Below are positions 12,582 to 29,411 of a DNA stretch of 64,000 bases, piece after piece; positions within the stretch are counted from its first letter, which is position 1, and each line of letters starts with the position of its first letter. Under the pieces are notes generated by a model that saw only the letters and a program-made list of their open reading frames with translations, did no database searches and was not told where the DNA came from. The position numbers and the translations under genes are program-made. This stretch comes from Escherichia coli (GTDB taxonomy: Bacteria; Pseudomonadota; Gammaproteobacteria; Enterobacterales; Enterobacteriaceae). Location of the stretch: NCBI RefSeq assembly GCF_024223415.1, contig NZ_CP100500.1. The stretch is one strand, 5' to 3'.

Positions 12582-14041
12582 TGAAAAAATTACTGCGTCT
12601 TTTTTTCCCGCTCTCGCTGCGGGTACGTTTTCTGTTGGCAACGGCAGCGGTAGTACTGGTGCTTTCGCTTGCCTACGGAATGGTCGCGCTGATCGGTTAT
12701 AGCGTCAGTTTCGATAAAACTACGTTTCGGCTGTTACGTGGCGAGAGCAATCTGTTCTATACCCTTGCGAAGTGGGAAAACAATAAGTTGCATGTCGAGT
12801 TACCCGAAAATATCGACAAGCAAAGCCCCACCATGACGCTAATTTATGATGAGAACGGGCAGCTTTTATGGGCGCAACGTGACGTGCCCTGGCTGATGAA
12901 GATGATCCAGCCTGACTGGCTGAAATCGAATGGTTTTCATGAAATTGAAGCGGATGTTAACGATACCAGCCTCTTGCTGAGTGGAGATCATTCAATACAG
13001 CAACAGTTGCAGGAAGTGCGGGAAGATGATGACGACGCGGAGATGACCCACTCGGTGGCGGTAAACGTCTACCCGGCAACATCGCGGATGCCAAAGTTAA
13101 CCATTGTGGTGGTGGATACCATTCCGGTGGAGCTAAAAAGTTCCTATATGGTCTGGAGCTGGTTTATCTATGTGCTCTCAGCCAATCTGCTGTTAGTGAT
13201 CCCGCTGCTGTGGGTCGCCGCCTGGTGGAGTTTACGCCCCATCGAAGCCCTGGCAAAAGAAGTCCGCGAACTGGAAGAACATAACCGCGAATTGCTCAAT
13301 CCAGCCACAACGCGAGAACTGACCAGTCTGGTACGAAACCTGAACCGATTGTTAAAAAGCGAACGCGAACGTTACGACAAATACCGTACAACGCTCACCG
13401 ACCTGACCCATAGTCTGAAAACGCCACTGGCGGTGCTGCAAAGTACGCTGCGTTCTCTGCGTAGTGAAAAGATGAGCGTCAGTGATGCTGAACCGGTAAT
13501 GCTGGAGCAAATCAGCCGCATTTCACAGCAAATTGGCTACTACCTGCATCGTGCCAGTATGCGCGGCGGGACATTGCTCAGCCGCGAGCTGCATCCGGTC
13601 GCCCCACTGCTGGACAATCTCACCTCGGCGCTGAACAAAGTGTATCAACGCAAAGGGGTCAATATCTCTCTCGATATTTCGCCAGAGATCAGCTTTGTCG
13701 GTGAGCAGAACGATTTTGTCGAGGTGATGGGCAATGTGCTGGATAATGCCTGTAAATATTGCCTCGAGTTTGTCGAAATTTCTGCAAGGCAAACCGACGA
13801 GCATCTCTATATTGTGGTCGAGGATGATGGACCCGGTATTCCATTAAGCAAGCGAGAGGTCATTTTCGACCGTGGTCAACGGGTTGATACTTTACGCCCT
13901 GGGCAAGGTGTGGGGCTGGCGGTAGCCCGCGAAATCACCGAGCAATATGAGGGTAAAATCGTCGCCGGAGAGAGCATGCTGGGCGGTGCGCGGATGGAGG
14001 TGATTTTTGGTCGCCAGCATTCTGCGCCGAAAGATGAATAA
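12581..14041 (+). CDS. phoQ: Sensor histidine kinase PhoQ
   Basis: 486 aa; start overlaps phoP stop (ATGA); TM-periplasmic-HAMP-HisKA-ATPase layout. Confidence 0.95.
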
Positions 14042-14049
14042 ATATGTCC
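14039..14049. repeat. Left copy of short direct repeat taaatatgtcc overlapping the phoQ stop codon; candidate attL core
   Basis: 10-bp perfect match aaatatgtcc with 29402-29411 (13/15 over tgaataaatatgtcc vs tgataaaatatgtcc). Confidence 0.5.
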
Positions 14050-14121
14050 TTTTATCACCGATATTAGTTAATATATTGATTTAATTAAAAATATACACAA
14101 ACAAAAGTGCCAAAAATCGCA

Positions 14122-14147
14122 AATTAACTACACCATTAACTACACCG
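14122..14147. repeat. Inner 26-bp direct repeat aattaactacaccattaactacaccg, left copy (two tandem 13-mers); alternative att core
   Basis: Exact 26/26 match to 29252-29277; followed on both sides by similar phased repeat arrays. Confidence 0.8.
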
Positions 14148-14163
14148 TTCGGCGCACTGTATG

Positions 14164-14189
14164 AAACAACGTGGAACAAATAGGCACAA
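14164..14189 (+). promoter_or_regulatory. 10-bp-phased NNACAA direct repeats (AAACAA, GAACAA, GCACAA); putative recombinase/RDF or regulator binding array
   Basis: Motifs start at 14164, 14174, 14184; same family as arrays at 21838, 27909 and 29284. Confidence 0.4.
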
Positions 14190-14366: not shown

Positions 14367-14911
14367 TAACGAAAGTCGTTATGGTTGCCACCGATACTCC
14401 AAATTTGGGTATCACGAGTAAGCCCCAAAATCTGGGTGTTACTCTTACTACCCAAACTACGGGTAGTTTCCGTAGTTTCATGGTCGAGTTGCAGATCTGC
14501 AACTCCCCCATCAACCACAGGCGAATTTCCGCCTTCGGTCATTCCTTAATCATCTGCGTAATCATAATGATTATTCAGCCAGCTCAATTTTGAGCTTTGC
14601 TTTAAGTTCAGCGAGTTACCGCGCCGACTTCCTCAAATTGAGGTTTCCGAAAATATCAGTGGGTTAGCGATTAAGCAGATGGATAATTAACCTGCGAAAA
14701 TTTCGCAGGTTACATCAGCGACGTAATTCTCGCTGTTCCTGCCCGGAGGTGTCGACGAATTTCGTCGGAACCTAAGCCTGCCGGGAAGTCCGTACGTTAA
14801 ACGTACGGAGTTAATTCGACATCACACACTACGTTGTCAATTTGCAAAGGAGGGGCGGAAATCACCATACCTGCCACCCTGTCATACAGAAAGGGATTAC
14901 GATAATCGTAA
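14367..14911. repeat. Palindrome-dense noncoding block (at least eight perfect or near-perfect inverted repeats of 13-21 bp)
   Basis: Palindromes at 14367-14381, 14454-14478, 14486-14505, 14581-14596, 14631-14643, 14691-14709, 14752-14766, 14789-14809, 14897-14911; no convincing ORF. Confidence 0.6.
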
Positions 14912-15278: not shown

Positions 15279-16936
15279 ACCCCATCAAACGCCGCAAGCC
15301 GCTCTTTGTGGCTGTCGCTCATATCGAATGCAAATTCCTCATGCTCTGCCTGGAATGTGCCAAACGCCATCAGCGCCGCAACGCTCGGGTCTATCTTGTT
15401 GGATGATTTTTTCTTGTTCGGCTTGATATTGGCGTTCGCGTCACTCTGCATCACAACATTACTCATTGACCAGGCCAGCACCGGATCACCACGATGCACA
15501 ATCACCTTCCGGTTAACAAAAACTTCGAACGATTTCGCCGCCGGACTGAAACGAAGGTATGTTTGCGGGAACGGCTCCACCTCAAATCCTGCGCCCTGTA
15601 GCTGCGTCATCAGGTGCGTGGCGTTCCATGTATCGAAGCCCACCAGCCGGATATTAAAATTTTCCGCGTCCTTCATGATGTCATCCCTGATACGGTCGTA
15701 ATCAATACAGTCGCCTGGCGTTGTGCGTATCCAGCCCGATTTTGCCCACTGGCGATAGATGGCGCGGTTTTTATTGGCGGGATTCTGTAGCTGCTGCTCC
15801 GGCAGATAATGACGGGAAACCAGCATGATGGTTTTACCAACCGGAAAGGCATAACACACGCTTGAAATATCATTTGTTGATGATAAATCCAGCCCCGCAT
15901 AGCACTCCTGCCCGTGTAAATCTTCCTCCGTGAACGTTCCGGCACACTCAGCCCATGCACCGTTACCCATCCACGGCGTAGCCCCCTGACACCAGATATT
16001 AAAGCGCTTTGTCATCATCTCCACCCACTGCGACGGAATACCCCGCGCTTTCTGGATGGTTGAGGCAAGTTTTTCACGATCGACGGAAACATCGATATTG
16101 GGATTCGCCTTTATCCACATCGCCGGATCGTCAACCTCGCTTTCATCATCCAGCTCGTAAATCATCACGAACATGGATTCATTAACCTCTTCACCATCCA
16201 GTATCTGACAGCAATAATCATAGTGCTGCTTACAGGCAGAAATAACGTTGCTTCCCGATGTGGTAATGGCGAATAACAGCCCGTCAGGACGCGCACCCAT
16301 CCCAAGTTCAAGCGCGGAATATACGCCGTTATCGGGGTGTAAATGGTATTCATCCACAATGGCAAGACTCGGGTTTGTCCCCTCAATGGTCGCCGCCTTT
16401 GCCGCCAGTGGCTTTAACAGGCTGTTGGTTTTCGGGTGTATCACCTTGTGCGCCTGAATATTTACCCGCTTTCGTAACGGTCGGGATAAAAGGCACATCT
16501 GACGCGCATCATCAAACACGATCCGCGCCTGATCACGACTCACGGCGGCGGTGTAAATATCCTGCTGCCCGTTTTCCATAACCAGAAACCAGTTAGCCAG
16601 GATAGCGGCGACCGTGGATTTGGCATTTTTTCGCGGTACTTCAATGAATGCGCTGGTGTATTTGCGCCGTCCGGTGGACTTAACCTTAAAGCCCAGGATG
16701 CACGCAAAGGCGAACTGCTGCCACGGCTCCAGTTCAATGGGGCTACCGCGCATTGCACCTTTTACGTGCGGGCACACCCTGGAAAAGGCAATAAACCGCT
16801 CCACGACCTCCGGATCGAACGTGTAAAGGGGGTTTTCAAGGTCAGAAAAATACCGTTTAACAGCCTGTTTCAGTCGTTTACAGGCCGTAATTTTGCCGTT
16901 TTTTACGCCTTCTGCGTACTCATGCCAGGCGGTCAA
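15275..16936 (-). CDS. terL: Terminase large subunit
   Basis: 553 aa; N-terminal ATPase region with P-loop-like PRKNAKST, C-terminal nuclease-like region; follows terS. Confidence 0.85.
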   Translation of the reverse strand: MTAWHEYAEGVKNGKITACKRLKQAVKRYFSDLENPLYTFDPEVVERFIAFSRVCPHVKGAMRGSPIELEPWQQFAFACILGFKVKSTGRRKYTSAFIEVPRKNAKSTVAAILANWFLVMENGQQDIYTAAVSRDQARIVFDDARQMCLLSRPLRKRVNIQAHKVIHPKTNSLLKPLAAKAATIEGTNPSLAIVDEYHLHPDNGVYSALELGMGARPDGLLFAITTSGSNVISACKQHYDYCCQILDGEEVNESMFVMIYELDDESEVDDPAMWIKANPNIDVSVDREKLASTIQKARGIPSQWVEMMTKRFNIWCQGATPWMGNGAWAECAGTFTEEDLHGQECYAGLDLSSTNDISSVCYAFPVGKTIMLVSRHYLPEQQLQNPANKNRAIYRQWAKSGWIRTTPGDCIDYDRIRDDIMKDAENFNIRLVGFDTWNATHLMTQLQGAGFEVEPFPQTYLRFSPAAKSFEVFVNRKVIVHRGDPVLAWSMSNVVMQSDANANIKPNKKKSSNKIDPSVAALMAFGTFQAEHEEFAFDMSDSHKERLAAFDGV

Positions 16937-21660: not shown

Positions 21661-21837
21661 GCGGCAAAAACTCAACCGTTTTTCATAAGGAAATCAGCAA
21701 TCGCACCGATCGTTTTCCCGCCTGGTAATGAATATTGGCGAGCACATTAACAGGCGGGAAAGTGGCCCCAGCGTCCTGGCACCACGGGCGAGAATAATCA
21801 TGATTCAGTTCGAGTAAAATATGCCGATCCGCTCAGT

Positions 21838-21896
21838 GAACAACCTGGAACAACCACGAACAAATAATTTACAAAACCTGAAAAAATAAATAAACT
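21838..21896 (+). promoter_or_regulatory. Promoter of the 157-aa gene with phased upstream repeats: GAACAA x3 at 10-bp spacing, then -35 TTTACA, 17-bp spacer, -10 TAAACT
   Basis: GAACAA at 21838, 21848, 21858; TTTACA 21868-21873; TAAACT 21891-21896; AGGAGG SD at 21924 and ATG at 21938. Confidence 0.45.
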
Positions 21897-21937: not shown

Positions 21938-22411
21938 ATGTCAGAAAATGAACTGAAAAAAGCAATGTTCATTCAGCAACGATTGCAGATTCTCCACCTT
22001 GGTAAACACTATGATGAGTTCAGTGATTCTTACGTGTATGCCTGGGAGGCAGATGTTTATCCTTTCTTGCAGGATGGCGACGGAAGTATTCCTGCTCGCC
22101 CACATGAAATTTACGAAGAGTTTTTCGGCACATCTAAAAACAAAGCCAAAAAGATATACGATCGTCTGTGCAAAGCCTGGCACGACCAGGAGGCACTCAC
22201 ATTCTATAAACTAGAAAGTGAATATGGTGTAACAAGTAGCAGCATGCACAGATGGACACGAAGTGATTTACTTCACATCTGCCGCTATCTGTATCTTGAG
22301 GGGTGTTTCGATAAAGATTTCTGGGAAACATTACTGGAAAACGGAAAATGCCCAAGCGAAGCACTTTACCTTAGCGATGAATTTAATCGCGATACAGAGA
22401 TCGACTTCTAA
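21938..22411 (+). CDS. Hypothetical protein (157 aa), stand-alone opposite-strand cargo gene
   Basis: Strong SD and promoter, own bidirectional terminator; only plus-strand gene inside the structural/regulatory part of the island; no recognisable domain. Confidence 0.65.
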   Translation: MSENELKKAMFIQQRLQILHLGKHYDEFSDSYVYAWEADVYPFLQDGDGSIPARPHEIYEEFFGTSKNKAKKIYDRLCKAWHDQEALTFYKLESEYGVTSSSMHRWTRSDLLHICRYLYLEGCFDKDFWETLLENGKCPSEALYLSDEFNRDTEIDF

Positions 22412-23758: not shown

Positions 23759-24006
23759 GCTTCCACCTCTCCGGTTTTAACGTTGATGGTTGTCACCTGT
23801 TCCGCTCCGGCAATCTCCCGTTCTGTCAGCGTGGCAAAATTTGCCGCTACCGTTGTCATGAATGCGCTTATCAGTTCGGGATGTGCTTTCGCGTATCCTT
23901 CTCCCGCGTGGCGGTCTATCGTTCTGATTGCCACCTTTAAGGCGTGCTCTGTCATGTCTAACGCTTTATATTTTGGCGCTGTCTTATCTCTGGTTTTTCT
24001 GTTCAT
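23755..24006 (-). CDS. Hypothetical protein (start uncertain)
   Basis: ORF 23755-24036 trimmed to an internal ATG because its 5' end runs into the iteron array. Confidence 0.3.
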   Translation of the reverse strand: MNRKTRDKTAPKYKALDMTEHALKVAIRTIDRHAGEGYAKAHPELISAFMTTVAANFATLTEREIAGAEQVTTINVKTGEVEA

Positions 24007-24225
24007 TCCCCACCACTCCCCACTTTTGCTCCCCACTTTTTAAATTCCCCACTTGCTCCCCACCTCGTTTTTTGAGTGAATCTAATGCTTTGTTTTTCAT
24101 TGCGTTTTTTGCTCCCCACTTTTTTGGATGTATACAGGTGGGAAAGTGGGGAATTATGTTTCAATTTTGTTAAATTCCCCACTCTCCCCACTTTTACTAC
24201 CCACTTTTTACAGTGGGTAAACATC
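24005..24225. repeat. Iteron array (at least 8 copies of tccccactttt-like units in both orientations around an AT-rich core); putative replication origin
   Basis: Repeats ctccccactttt, gctccccacttttt, attccccact and inverted gtgggaaagtgggg, immediately 3' of the primase/helicase gene. Confidence 0.6.
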
Positions 24226-25614
24226 ATCCCCATCGACACAAATCACGCCGTCTTTTTCCAGCTTGTACAGCCAGCGCCGGAAGTGCTTCATCTCATACCC
24301 CAGCTTTTTCATATCGTCGCGGAGAAGGGCGATAGTGCATGGCTCTTTGTGTGCCGTCCGCGTTCTGATGCACTGCCATAGCGCGGCGTGATTCTCCGAT
24401 TTGTTGCCTGCTTCCTCGATGCGCTCCAGTTCAGCAGGGGCGCGGGGAACGTCAATCACCACCATAGACACAATCTCTTCGCCATCTGTATCGGTGAACA
24501 CCTCCACGCTTTTAAGGTCGTATGCACTCTCTTTTGGCTCCTCTGCGTCCTTCATCTTCGTACACGCCGCCACCAGTGCTGTAACGTCTGAATTTTCCCG
24601 GCTGATTCGGTACTCTGCATCAAGCGCGGCACGGAATGCGCTGGAACCACGCGCCCCCTTTGTTTCATCCTTGCCGGAATGGTGAACCACCAGCACCGTG
24701 GCCCCTGTGGCCTGCTTTATCGCGTCACACCCCTGGATAAATGCGCCCATATCACGGGAATCATTTTCATCATTCCCACCAAAGCAACGGGCCAGTGTGT
24801 CGATCACAATCAGCCGCACATTTTCGCCCGTTCTGCTCTTAACAAGTCCGGCAGTCCTGATAACCTGCTCCACATAGTCAGGCGATGCAGGGAAAACAGG
24901 CGCGTTAATGATGCACAAATCTGTAACCACCTTGTCGTGGGTTATCTCCCACGCCTTAACGCGGCGTTTTACGCCCATGCTGCCTTCACCAGCGATATAG
25001 ATAACCGCCCCCTTACTTACCCTGCGGCCTCCCCATGCCATACCTGTGGCAACATGGCACGACCAGGAAATGGCGAGGAACGATTTATAAGAACCGCTGG
25101 CCCCGTAGGTGCTGCATAATGACTCAGCCGGAATAAGCCCCTTAATTACGTAGCTTTGCTGCGCGTCGAATCCCTCAGAACCCCATGAGATGGGAAGCGT
25201 GATTTTTCGCTTTCCGCCATTCATGACCAGGCTTTCCCCTCTCTCCCATGTTTCCCGTAGTCGTGGTAGCTGGTCGCTCCAGTCCTCCAGCAGTTCGAAA
25301 TTTTCAGAAAGTAGCCGCGCCTCCTGGACTCCGGCGATCGCCAGTTTTGTGGCAATGGTCAGCATCTGCATATCGTCCAGGTTTCCGGCGCGTATGACCT
25401 TTGCCCTGTATCGTCCTTCATCAACAATCTGTAAGTTGTCCAGTTCGCTTAACTGATAACGGCCCAGGTAAACCGGAGGGATGGGATCGCCTGCTTTTTT
25501 GGCCTGTGCAATCATGTAATGTTCTGCAAAGGAGTGAGCATTATCACCCGCAAAAATAACCGCCTCAGTGTGTTTATCTTTCGGTAACAGTTTTACGTTC
25601 GGTGCAAGTTTCAT
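24208..25614 (-). CDS. Replication protein: primase-like N-terminus plus RecA/DnaB-like AAA ATPase (pri-rep)
   Basis: 468 aa; Walker A-like IYIAGEGSMGVKRR and Walker B-like LIVIDTLARCFG, C-terminal winged-helix-like tail. Confidence 0.75.
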   Translation of the reverse strand: MKLAPNVKLLPKDKHTEAVIFAGDNAHSFAEHYMIAQAKKAGDPIPPVYLGRYQLSELDNLQIVDEGRYRAKVIRAGNLDDMQMLTIATKLAIAGVQEARLLSENFELLEDWSDQLPRLRETWERGESLVMNGGKRKITLPISWGSEGFDAQQSYVIKGLIPAESLCSTYGASGSYKSFLAISWSCHVATGMAWGGRRVSKGAVIYIAGEGSMGVKRRVKAWEITHDKVVTDLCIINAPVFPASPDYVEQVIRTAGLVKSRTGENVRLIVIDTLARCFGGNDENDSRDMGAFIQGCDAIKQATGATVLVVHHSGKDETKGARGSSAFRAALDAEYRISRENSDVTALVAACTKMKDAEEPKESAYDLKSVEVFTDTDGEEIVSMVVIDVPRAPAELERIEEAGNKSENHAALWQCIRTRTAHKEPCTIALLRDDMKKLGYEMKHFRRWLYKLEKDGVICVDGDDVYPL

Positions 25615-27437: not shown

Positions 27438-27626
27438 TTAGTGAACTGCCTCGCAGCTTTCCTTCCATGCCAGAACTTCGGATAAAGACCAGCCAACGGA
27501 ACGACCGCCCAGCTTACGCCGTGATGGGAATTGTCCGGCCTTTTCCAGGCGGTAGCGGCATGAGCGGCTAAGCCCTGTTAGCTTTTCGCATTCTTTTTCA
27601 CGTATAAAACGATCAGTGCTTAACAC
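27438..27626 (-). CDS. alpA: AlpA-family phage transcriptional regulator / excisionase-like
   Basis: 62 aa, LTGLSRSCRYRLEKAGQFPSRRKLGGRSVGWSLSEVLAW matches the AlpA/Xis HTH pattern; adjacent to int. Confidence 0.75.
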   Translation of the reverse strand: MLSTDRFIREKECEKLTGLSRSCRYRLEKAGQFPSRRKLGGRSVGWSLSEVLAWKESCEAVH

Positions 27627-27908
27627 TATTGCCCCCTTTCGTTTCTTAAAGAGTTATTTCGTGTTCTATTGCGTTGGTATGTGTCTGATTGTGTCAGGGT
27701 GATTCAGAGTTGGCAAATGTTGATGGCGGGTATTTTACAGAAACGGGGTGATTTTAATAAAAAACATTTTAATTCAGTATTATGCAAAGGCATAAAATCT
27801 CGTTTCATGCCTTTTTTCTCACTATTTAAAGCGTTATTCGCTAATGTATAAAAAACCAGTTGAGCATTAAAAATCAGCAACTTATAAATCTGTATATTTT
27901 TTGGCCTC

Positions 27909-27954
27909 TTGTTCGTGGTTGTTTCACGTTGTTGCGTATTGTTGCACGTTGTAT
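27909..27954 (-). promoter_or_regulatory. Five 10-bp-phased direct repeats (TTGTT on plus strand = AACAA on minus) between int and alpA
   Basis: TTGT motifs start at 27909, 27919, 27929, 27939, 27949. Confidence 0.5.
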
Positions 27955-28000
27955 CTGTGCACTTATCCAGTATGCGCATACTGAAAAAACACGAAAAAAA

Positions 28001-29248
28001 TTATTTTCTTCTGGCTACTGGTAGCGTGGTTACGTTTTCATGTGCTCCCGCCAGTATCTCCAACCGCTCCACCCACATATCCAGCGCATTGCGTTTCGCA
28101 TCCAGATAACGGGAATGATTATAAACTCGCTGCATTCCTGGCATCTGGTGGCCTGTAAGCTGCTCCACGACATGCGGATCAACGCCTAAATCGTTCAGCA
28201 TGGTTGTAAAGGTGCGCCGGATGTCATGCAGTGACCAGTGAGGGTGTTTAAGCCTCCTGTGCACTAATCTGCCGTACTGCGACACGCTGGTTTCCTGTTT
28301 CACTTCCCCCAGCAATAAGTCCGTGTGCCTGTTCTGCTCCACCAGCTGCGTGACGAACGGCAGTATCGCTTCCGGTATGGGCCGGAATATGGCTACCTTC
28401 GTTTTGCTGTGCTCCTTCGGAACGGTCCAGAGCATTTCGGTAAAATCCCACTCGCCGATCTCCGATAACCTCAGTTCTACTGTCCTGCATCCGAAGACAA
28501 TCAGGAGGCGGATTAGTGCGACGTAGTAAGGGGAAAATATTTTTTTGTCCAGTGCCTGCAATAATTCGCCAAGTTCTTTGTTACTTAAGACACGCTGACT
28601 TATATCCGGTTTTTTCCCAACGTCAGCCACACTCATATCATCAAGAACGTTGCTGATTGCATAGCGCCGCTTCCGGCAGAACTTAAGCGCCTGTTTGCAT
28701 GTCTGTAGCAGGAACCCGGCGGAAACAGGGGCTTGCTTTGCCACCCGATCAAAACAGGCCAGCCAGTGCCGTAGCTCGCATTTATCCAGCGGCATAGGGC
28801 CAATGTGCTGTATTACGTGATTATTTAGCCGCTTTTTCAGTGGGTCATAATCCACACGGTTTTCCTTTGCGTACGACTCAAGCCAGTAGGTGAGCGCATC
28901 GCCAACCGTTACAGGCTTTAACGCTTCCTGTACGGTGTAATTCATCTCATGACGTGGATTTTTCCCCTCAGCCAGCCATGCGCGACACTGGGCGGCTTTT
29001 TCCCTGGCTGATTTCAGGCTCAGATCAGGATAATTTCCCAGCTTAATGCGTTCCGGTGGTGCGCCCCTTCCCGTTCCGGCCCTGTAAGTGAAATACCAGG
29101 TTAAAAGGCCGCTGGTTGAATGCCTGACGGTCAGGTTTCCACCGTCATTAAGAAAGGCTGTTTTTTGGGCGGGTGTGCCGTTGATTTTCCTTAGCTGTGT
29201 ATCACTCAGTTTGTTAAGTGCTCTGCGCATAATTTTGATTCCGGTCAT
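28001..29248 (-). CDS. int: Tyrosine-type site-specific integrase (P4-like)
   Basis: About 415 aa; N-terminal arm-binding-like region, catalytic HDIRRTF...HQMPGMQRVYNHSRY; start codon (GTG 29251 or ATG 29248/29230) abuts the 26-bp repeat. Confidence 0.9.
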   Translation of the reverse strand: MTGIKIMRRALNKLSDTQLRKINGTPAQKTAFLNDGGNLTVRHSTSGLLTWYFTYRAGTGRGAPPERIKLGNYPDLSLKSAREKAAQCRAWLAEGKNPRHEMNYTVQEALKPVTVGDALTYWLESYAKENRVDYDPLKKRLNNHVIQHIGPMPLDKCELRHWLACFDRVAKQAPVSAGFLLQTCKQALKFCRKRRYAISNVLDDMSVADVGKKPDISQRVLSNKELGELLQALDKKIFSPYYVALIRLLIVFGCRTVELRLSEIGEWDFTEMLWTVPKEHSKTKVAIFRPIPEAILPFVTQLVEQNRHTDLLLGEVKQETSVSQYGRLVHRRLKHPHWSLHDIRRTFTTMLNDLGVDPHVVEQLTGHQMPGMQRVYNHSRYLDAKRNALDMWVERLEILAGAHENVTTLPVARRK

Positions 29249-29251
29249 CAC

Positions 29252-29277
29252 AATTAACTACACCATTAACTACACCG
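29252..29277. repeat. Inner 26-bp direct repeat, right copy
   Basis: Exact match to 14122-14147. Confidence 0.8.
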
Positions 29278-29283
29278 ATCGTT

Positions 29284-29319
29284 GCACAAAGGGCTACAAC
29301 GTGAAACAAGCTGGAACAA
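29284..29319 (+). promoter_or_regulatory. 10-bp-phased NNACAA repeats (GCACAA, CTACAA, AAACAA, GAACAA) upstream of int on the opposite strand
   Basis: Motifs start at 29284, 29294, 29304, 29314; homologous to the array at 14164-14189. Confidence 0.4.
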
Positions 29320-29399
29320 GAAAAATCACAAATTTGTTTATAATCAAAAACATAATGCACAATCTGAAACATTATGAAACGGCAAAAAACACTAATTGA

Positions 29400-29411
29400 T
29401 AAAATATGTCC
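29400..29411. repeat. Right copy of short direct repeat taaaatatgtcc; candidate attR core
   Basis: Matches the sequence at the phoQ stop codon (14039-14049). Confidence 0.5.

Follow-up and report, generated by a model that had tools for sequence, protein, structure and literature searches.

Phased short repeats in the attachment arms and regulatory regions of a capsid-forming PICI-like satellite of Escherichia coli, and AlpA as their candidate binder

Which protein reads a short motif that recurs in exact helical phase at four places of one genomic island? The question is raised by a 64-kb stretch of Escherichia coli DNA (64,000 nucleotides of contig NZ_CP100500.1, hereafter the window), which carries, between phoQ and roxA, an island that is a phage satellite resembling capsid-forming PICIs (cf-PICIs; PICI, phage-inducible chromosomal island). 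A first-pass annotation of the window had described four arrays of NNACAA repeats and had proposed one cooperatively binding island protein, for example AlpA or the arm-binding domain of the integrase (Int), that would couple recombination to transcription. On balance, and with moderate confidence, we read the arrays as head-to-tail binding sites of AlpA, one per helical turn, with AlpA serving both as recombination directionality factor (RDF) and as transcription regulator. This reading draws on analogy with other small winged-helix proteins and on the positions of the arrays, as set out below.

Four phased arrays in the window

Reading of the sequence and a scan of both strands of the window confirmed all four arrays where the first-pass annotation had placed them:

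27909..27958, minus strand: array A, five units at 10-bp spacing, ACAGATACAA CGTGCAACAA TACGCAACAA CGTGAAACAA CCACGAACAA
21834..21874, plus strand: array B, CAGTGAACAA CCTGGAACAA CCACGAACAA and then ATAATTTACAA, with GAACAA at 21838, 21848 and 21858
14150..14189, plus strand: array C, four units, CGGCGCACTG TATGAAACAA CGTGGAACAA ATAGGCACAA, beginning 3 bp past the left copy of a doubled 12-bp motif
29280..29319, plus strand: array D, four units, CGTTGCACAA AGGGCTACAA CGTGAAACAA GCTGGAACAA, between the right copy of the doubled motif and the attachment core

Array A lies 43-92 bp downstream of the int stop codon and 283 bp upstream of the alpA start, a distance that leaves it a candidate promoter element. 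Its five units have the phase and the positions originally given, but only four of them read TTGTT on the plus strand (27909, 27919, 27929 and 27939), the fifth being TTGTA (27949). In array B a TTACAA at 21869 follows the third unit 11 bp on and not 10, array C consists of AAACAA, GAACAA and GCACAA (14164, 14174 and 14184) preceded by a degenerate GCACTG in register at 14154, and array D reads GCACAA, CTACAA, AAACAA and GAACAA (29284, 29294, 29304 and 29314). ACAA is thus the recurring element, as had been noticed, but NNACAA understates the unit, which over 73 units from 19 distinct arrays of this and related islands is the 10-mer c-n-n-(G/C)-(G/A)-A-ACAA, or TTGTT(C/T)(C/G) on the other strand. 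Units within an array are direct and co-oriented, number three to six and follow each other at one helical turn (10 bp). Variation among the arrays is concentrated in unit positions 1-5 (28 of 105 columns, vs. 1 of 105 in positions 6-10), a comparison in which the ACAA columns are partly fixed by the way arrays were detected and in which one unit is broken in each of two related islands (L007 and L037).

Runs of at least three ACAA at exact 10-bp spacing occur exactly four times on the two strands of the window, namely as arrays A-D, compared with 0.02 runs on average and never more than one in 200 dinucleotide-preserving shuffles. When all non-homopolymer 4-mers were considered at periods of 9-12, four or more units were reached by arrays A and D only. 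The idea of a dedicated factor would have suffered had the motif been found at similar density and phase in unrelated E. coli DNA; 320 kb of non-island E. coli DNA contained no such ACAA run. The island itself has 50.3% GC and is therefore not AT-rich, and its total ACAA density is not raised. Related islands carry three or four such runs in nine of the ten that were scanned, the outlier (L009) having one.

Two further sets of phased units accompany the arrays, one in the int-side arm and one close to alpA:

29347..29392, plus strand: further phased block, weaker than the arrays, with five units spaced by 10 bp, AAAACA GCACAA AAACAT AAACGG AAACAC, between array D and the core
27679..27695, minus strand: proximal pair of units, GACACAA and GACACAT, 10 bp apart, overlapping a -10-like hexamer

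Relative to array D the weaker block is out of phase by about 3 bp. A TTGC-N6-TTGC pattern of the kind known for lambda CII is present within array A (27932-27945, plus strand); it occurs in arrays of the L001 type and not in those of the L006-L008 type, and because of this lack of conservation we take it as chance.

Attachment arms, the doubled 12-bp motif and related islands

The first-pass annotation had located arrays at the ends of the island. The empty site of K-12, gaataaATATGCCCatacttcac, reveals the true junction between phoQ and roxA and shows that the core lies further out, so that the inner repeats and arrays C and D fall inside the arms of attP. Array D as flanking host DNA was likewise rejected, the true core being 125 bp further out. 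The core AAATATGTCC is 10 bp long, with the same 10-mer at both junctions of the window; the junction repeat reads AAATATG(T/C)CC, and between its two copies the island measures 15,362 bp. The elements of the arms are:

14040..14049, no strand: attL copy of the core, AAATATGTCC, overlapping the phoQ stop codon; true left end
14069..14081, minus strand: site AATCAATATATTA resembling the consensus of integration host factor (IHF), between the core and the left doubled motif
14123..14146, plus strand: left doubled 12-bp motif, ATTAACTACACC twice; likely Int arm-type sites of the P' arm
29253..29276, plus strand: right doubled 12-bp motif, ATTAACTACACC twice, 22 bp upstream of the start codon of int; likely arm-type sites for Int in the P arm
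29402..29411, no strand: attR copy of the core, AAATATGTCC; true right end, as given by the K-12 empty site

Joined as attP, the order is int start codon, doubled 12-mer, array D, weaker block, core, IHF-like site, doubled 12-mer and array C. Array D and the weaker block (29280-29392) thus have the likely Int arm-type sites on one side and the core on the other, as is expected of RDF sites, and array C is distal to the left doubled motif and not between it and the core. An imperfect direct repeat of 75 nt (79% identical) is common to both arms, and within it 12-mer and array stand in equal register. From the consensus match only, we infer that 14069..14081 is an IHF site; a block attgatttaattaa is kept in the left arms of related islands.

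The 12-mer ATTAACTACACC has four copies in the window, vs. 0.17 expected, with centres about 90 and about 142 bp from the core. It shifts concertedly in both arms, which are 15 kb apart, and it does so along with an N-terminal beta-strand of Int:

ATTAACTACACC with the Int strand NLSVRHSTSGLL (RHSTSGLL): the window and most relatives
(A/G)TGACTACACC with the Int strand NLSVKYLTSGKL (KYLTSGKL): L005 and L008
CTGACCACACA with the Int strand GLEIKHSKGGKL (KHSKGGKL): L010

The pairings seen are thus ATTAAC with VRHSTSGLL, GTGAC with VKYLTSGKL and CTGACCACACA with IKHSKGGKL. The 12-mer does not follow AlpA, as L009 combines the second AlpA allele with the first type of 12-mer. The 10-bp arrays stay constant while the Int N-terminus varies, and they track neither protein variant. 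Since the 12-mer covaries with the Int N-terminus and the arrays do not, we assign the arm domain of Int to the 12-mers, which are likely its arm-type sites; their number, four, matches the four arm domains of an Int tetramer. Of the two binders originally named for the arrays, the evidence therefore favours AlpA, the Int arm domain being the better fit to the 12-mer. A comparable element has been described in helper-embedded PICIs, where a doubled tgTGTATTGCa (two copies), 81 and 132 bp from the core, was proposed as Int arm site (PMC10111431). Both systems have a co-oriented tandem 12-bp motif in each arm, and the two distances differ by 51-52 bp in both. The sequence differs from ATTAACTACACC, however, and the helper-embedded motif TGTATTGC was reported as absent from other PICIs, with no adjacent 10-bp arrays described (PMC10111431).

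The comparison comprised related islands from eight insertion sites together with the empty K-12 site:

phoQ/roxA: the window, L001, L003, L006 and L036 (EcCICFT073)
allC/allE: L004
tqsA: L005
composite island near tRNA-Asp: L007
yifB: L008
clpS/cspD: L009
thiM/rcnR: L010 and L038
smrA/abgR: L037

The phased motif search that the first-pass annotation had suggested for related islands found the arrays again: both arm arrays, each beside a doubled 12-mer, are present in every island compared. Array D is identical or nearly so at phoQ/roxA, allC/allE, tqsA, yifB, smrA/abgR and in the composite tRNA-Asp island, and diverged yet recognisable at clpS/cspD (L009) and thiM/rcnR (L010). Array A has five or six units in every island with the first AlpA allele, EcCICFT073 included, and these islands retain the proximal pair, which has three units in L001 and L003, also where the flanking sequence is different. 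Arrays A, C and D are found whether the replication protein is a RepA-helicase, a primase or a DUF927 protein and whether the packaging module is of the classical or the capsid-forming kind, and among the array-bearing islands Rep, PerC and the packaging proteins vary or are missing. An island with the same AlpA and a different Int family (H62/L037) was considered and rejected; its Int is of the same family, with an insertion sequence in int. CP4-57 of K-12 (intA/alpA) has no comparable arrays. One integrase lineage with a shared arm architecture thus uses at least eight different insertion sites, one of them inside another island.

A search with AlpA gave 19 close relatives, and a genome scan gave 23 loci, of which 11 with a recognisable upstream int were examined. 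Ten of these 11 loci, from other genera and mostly from Enterobacterales, share one arm plan, which runs toward int as a phased GTT block near the core (the counterpart of the weaker block in the window), two to four TTGTTC(A/G) units at 10 bp, a doubled 12-mer of the GGTGTAGTCAG type and int; the exception is a Pseudoalteromonas locus (L024). Arm arrays are kept in Kosakonia, Raoultella, Enterobacter, Yersinia, Erwinia, Hafnia and Serratia, and equivalents of the doubled 12-mer were also seen in L013-L025.

Array B had been tied to a gene for a 157-aa protein downstream of it, a link that did not hold. In all capsid-forming relatives examined array B forms a stretch of about 45 bp that is conserved amid diverged flanks; it comes upstream of the capsid operon and just past the intrinsic terminator with which the replication module ends. 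As judged from this conserved position, the array is part of the entrance to the packaging operon. The 157-aa open reading frame (ORF), which begins 75 bp downstream of the array, is annotated in none of the relatives examined, and for this reason we do not regard array B as specific to it, although L004 shares its sequence through the start codon. The ORF itself (21938-22411, plus strand) is on the strand opposite to that of every other gene in the island and comes with a strong ribosome-binding site, AGGAGG; it had no match in NCBIfam, PHROGs or PADLOC.

AlpA as candidate binder and the alternatives

The two genes between which array A is located encode the proteins that matter most for the assignment:

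27438..27626, minus strand: alpA, 62 aa, winged-helix protein (PF05930; PHROG annotation "excisionase and transcriptional regulator"), candidate binder of the arrays
28001..29230, minus strand: int, tyrosine integrase with Arm-DNA-bind_3 at residues 8-95 (E 4e-17) and Phage_integrase at 214-375, PHROG 1

As modelled by AlphaFold2 (pLDDT 87), AlpA adopts a beta-alpha-alpha-wing-alpha fold that comes nearest to the GIsul2 excisionase (TM 0.83-0.90, 38% identity) and then to RdfS, Pukovnik Xis, TorI and BldC; the best matches among solved excisionases are 8c3t, 8dgl, 4j2n and 1z4h, the last with a TM of only about 0.6. No second excisionase-like gene besides alpA was found in the island by ORF map and family searches. 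Several relatives of this fold form head-to-tail DNA filaments with one protomer per turn and act at attP as well as at promoters. Lambda Xis (as the X1-X1.5-X2 micro-filament) and P2 Cox are winged-helix RDFs that bind head-to-tail, with about one turn per protomer, at attP and at promoters, and RdfS of ICEMlSym R7A is likewise a winged-helix RDF acting head-to-tail at attP and promoters. RdfS and Xis have a weak consensus or none and others recognise other motifs, whereas the arrays described here show a sharp consensus of 6-7 bp in three to six units, at four sites per 15 kb.

The nearest parallel in sequence is found in KplE1 (CPS-53), whose TorI sites read GTTCG, GATCG and GTCCG (Panis et al. 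2010, PMC2951348). In the attL of K-12 KplE1 they stand as acaGTTCGtcatgGTTCGcttcaGATCG, with a phase of exactly 10 bp; beyond them come the -35 of intS, the arm sites of IntS and the ATG of intS, and a second TorI block lies nearer to the core. As in the window island, int is located at the end of the element with its upstream region inside an att arm, and core, two RDF blocks, Int arm-type sites and int ATG follow each other toward int; three GTTCG-like sites exactly 10 bp apart correspond to TTGTTC(C/G) here, array D reads TTGTTCC/TTGTTTC in the direction of int, the weaker block at 29347-29392 parallels the two-block layout, and TorI is a small winged-helix RDF that also regulates transcription. 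The two systems differ in that TorI sites are confined to one arm, whereas here four-unit arrays occupy both and two more arrays lie far from att, and in that TorI represses intS, whereas AlpA left the Pint of EcCICFT073 unaffected.

EcCICFT073 (L036) occupies the same phoQ/roxA site, has an AlpA identical at 58 of 62 positions and carries array A (with six units), array C and array D. Its published analysis allows the arrays to be set against experiments. Overexpression of AlpA led to excision and runaway replication and activated PalpA-lacZ, with Pint-lacZ unresponsive; induction and excision require AlpA, which suffices for both and autoactivates, and alpA expression is induced by helper phage. 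The published PalpA-lacZ primers map to L036 11128-11583, a fragment that includes array A and the whole 365-bp int-alpA spacer, and since this fragment holds array A, AlpA acts on DNA that includes it, which is consistent with our assignment and not specific to it. The Pint fragment maps to about L036 9623-10469 and comprises the core, the weaker block, array D, the 12-mers and the 5' part of int. Its lack of response argues against array D as an AlpA-controlled operator of int, a role that had also been suggested. In the Vibrio PICMI satellites (PICMI115) alpA alone suffices for excision and leaves satellite transcription unchanged, and the authors propose an excisionase.

AlpA is thus probably to be preferred over the arm domain of Int as binder of the arrays, and a single cooperative island protein coupling recombination with transcription, as first proposed, is the best-supported explanation given the precedents of TorI in KplE1, P2 Cox, RdfS and Xis; the binding itself we infer. 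Several points weigh against it. The assignment of AlpA rests on analogy and position, and sequence similarity between TorI and AlpA is undetectable. The Pint fragment did not respond to AlpA although it contains array D and the doubled motif. Arrays are found on both arms, RDF sites being usually confined to one, and array C lies beyond the Int sites as seen from the core. About 200 bp separate array A from the best promoter-like site in the vicinity of alpA, and arrays B and D are oriented away from the genes that they precede. Finally, islands with the second AlpA allele (L009 and L010, about 60% identical) keep the arm arrays, L010 also array B, and lack array A, having GATAT(C/T) repeats upstream of alpA instead; either both AlpA alleles read one unit or the arrays belong to another factor. 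Upstream of alpA, L009 shows AATATC four times at 10-bp spacing (16850-16875) and L010 shows GTGATATCAC twice (about 16120-16160).

The invariance of the unit across AlpA alleles and Int variants is what would be expected if another trans-acting factor, such as a host nucleoid protein or response regulator, a different island protein or a helper-phage inducer of alpA, were the binder. Helper-phage induction of alpA indeed acts on a fragment containing array A, and direct repeats one helical turn apart are typical of regulators of the OmpR/PhoB type. On the other hand, PhoP and ArcA boxes have a period of 11 bp and not 10, and the absence of any such run from the 320 kb of host DNA means that a host regulon is not evident; boxes of the PhoP, ArcA, CpxR and OmpR type were set aside, as their period or motif differs and no host copies were found in those 320 kb. 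Rep, PerC and the packaging proteins, which differ or are missing among array-keeping islands, are poor candidates, and the arrays inside the attP arms are exactly where RDFs bind. We regard another factor as unlikely. A rather unlikely explanation, in our view, is that the arrays are arm-type sites of the N-terminal domain of Int, comparable to P'1-P'3 of lambda, with the 12-mer left to some other factor. Int does carry an Arm-DNA-bind_3 domain, arrays C and D are co-oriented in both arms with four units each, as would suit a tetramer, and the arm arrays are retained by all islands whose Int is homologous, whichever AlpA allele they have. It is the 12-mer and not the arrays, however, that covaries with the N-terminal strand of Int; arrays A and B, at 1.45 kb and about 7.5 kb from the core, are not part of attP and stand where Int arm sites are not known to have a role, the unit is similar to a characterised RDF site and not to a known arm site, and the study of helper-embedded PICIs likewise proposed a doubled motif as arm site.

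Two further explanations dispense with a regulator. Intrinsically curved DNA, made of phased A-rich stretches that help the arms to fold and promoters to work without a specific protein, would agree with A-rich, exactly phased units and with a weaker block composed of phased A-tracts (AAAAC, GAAAC). But among the most conserved positions are the C of ACAA and a G/C lying two to three bases ahead of it, A and T being free in the spacer; curvature by itself would not keep these bases constant from genus to genus, and we hold this explanation to be improbable. That the arrays are iterons of a replication origin or packaging sites (cos/pac, TerS) is highly improbable and largely refuted: phased direct repeats are typical of both and array B occurs only in islands with an HK97-type packaging module, but the origin iterons of the island, TTTTGCTCCCCACTTTTT, are different and adjoin the RepA helicase gene, and the arrays persist across three replication proteins and both packaging modules. 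Another 10-bp phased array, GTCAC four to five times, was observed in related islands, where it lies at the far end and just beyond the last small gene (L007 8152-8186, L008 4095-4140, L010 3680-3714 and L037 8826-8860) and is absent from the window island; it may be a packaging or TerS site.

Other features of the island and a possible AlpA regulon

Promoter scans gave no convincing Pint and no more than weak candidates near arrays A and B. A promoter-like TTTACA-17-TAAACT on the plus strand abuts array B, and about 60 bp upstream of alpA a promoter-like TTGCCA-17-CACAAT overlaps the proximal pair. Co-oriented -10-like hexamers follow the last unit of three arrays at about 19-24 bp (TATAAG past array A, TAAATA/TAAACT past array B and TATAAT past array D), an arrangement that would suit activator-dependent promoters; those past arrays B and D would fire away from island genes. 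The one past array D is a perfect TATAAT (29339-29344, plus strand), 19 bp beyond the array, with no -35 and pointing outward toward the core and roxA.

Between array A and the proximal pair the leader of alpA contains a further conserved element:

27786..27814, minus strand: alpA-leader hairpin, AAAGGCAT/ATGCCTTT, kept in relatives

Compensatory changes are present in L008 (GGCGTAAA/TTTACGCC), and G-T changes in L006 and L007 pair only in RNA of the minus strand, that is in alpA sense, which suggests a terminator or stability element of the leader. On the plus strand the hairpin resembles an intrinsic terminator followed by T6. An antitermination model for array A and the hairpin, after AlpA of P. 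aeruginosa, was rejected, as that protein is larger, unrelated and Q-like and uses a single GGGACG element; the shared name is coincidental.

The minus-strand genes of the island encode Int, AlpA, an Icd-like protein, a RepA-type helicase, a PerC-like protein, an HK97 capsid protein, protease, portal, connectors, HNH, TerS and TerL, and no tail or lysis genes were found in the island by ORF map and family searches. Three further features concern its replication and packaging:

24208-25614, minus strand: RepA-type helicase, from ORF map and family searches
23997-24210: iterons TTTTGCTCCCCACTTTTT, three copies at 83-85 bp spacing, with CCCCAC repeats, immediately downstream of the RepA-type helicase gene
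start at 21667, minus strand: HK97 capsid gene, array B lying between its start and the end of the replication module

The iterons look replication-origin-like. The island has int, alpA, a replication gene, a packaging set, a size of about 15 kb and an att site of its own, as cf-PICIs do. It shares the layout of int, alpA and replication genes with EcCICFT073 and EcCIEDL933, and with EcCIEDL933, the cf-PICI prototype, also the packaging set and nearly the size (15.4 kb vs. 15.36 kb here). Close relatives sit between phoQ and roxA in other E. coli as well; a full-length identical island is absent from the E. coli collection, in which the best matches had 96.5% identity over 80% and 90.5% identity at 86% coverage. 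An Rfam search identified no known RNA in the island, a match to manA RNA (14427-14596, minus strand) being below threshold (21.6 bits vs. a gathering score of 55.2, E 0.055) and probably due to chance.

Taken together, the positions of the arrays could be explained by the following course of events. The arm-binding domains of an Int tetramer would occupy the four 12-mers. Once a helper phage switches alpA on, AlpA might polymerise on arrays D and C beside the Int sites, bend the arms and shift Int toward the excisive complex: on array D and the weaker block it would bend the int-side arm between Int sites and core, in the manner of TorI and Xis, and array C may stabilise or reposition Int at the other pair of its sites. 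On array A and the proximal pair AlpA would raise transcription of alpA, corresponding to the published autoactivation, and on array B it would act at the boundary of the replication and packaging modules, where the packaging operon starts. It is tempting to extend this to the whole satellite, with TTGTTC(C/G) arrays as operators of an AlpA regulon that covers both attP arms, the alpA leader and the entry of the capsid and packaging operon; we put this forward tentatively, as a possibility that we do not consider the likelier outcome.

Gram-negative PICIs and cf-PICIs are widespread phage satellites whose induction hinges on AlpA, and published work on EcCICFT073 and EcCIEDL933 defines no binding sites for AlpA or Int, nor did we find a description of such sites for these PICIs in the literature searched. 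With the unit described here, this family of satellites would gain its first candidate operator for AlpA. The interplay of AlpA and Int during excision has been named an open question in the literature, and the arrays together with the 12-mer give a testable map of the intasome, one that also covers EcCICFT073, a model element with existing reporters and mutants. As phased repeats for excisionases and at promoters are well known, the gain is one for satellite biology and annotation and not a new principle. If the regulon exists, however, a single helper-induced protein of 62 aa would switch a cf-PICI from silent to excised, self-amplifying and particle-producing, and the arrays would represent the first defined cis-regulatory code for Gram-negative PICIs and offer a handle on helper-phage action at the alpA leader.

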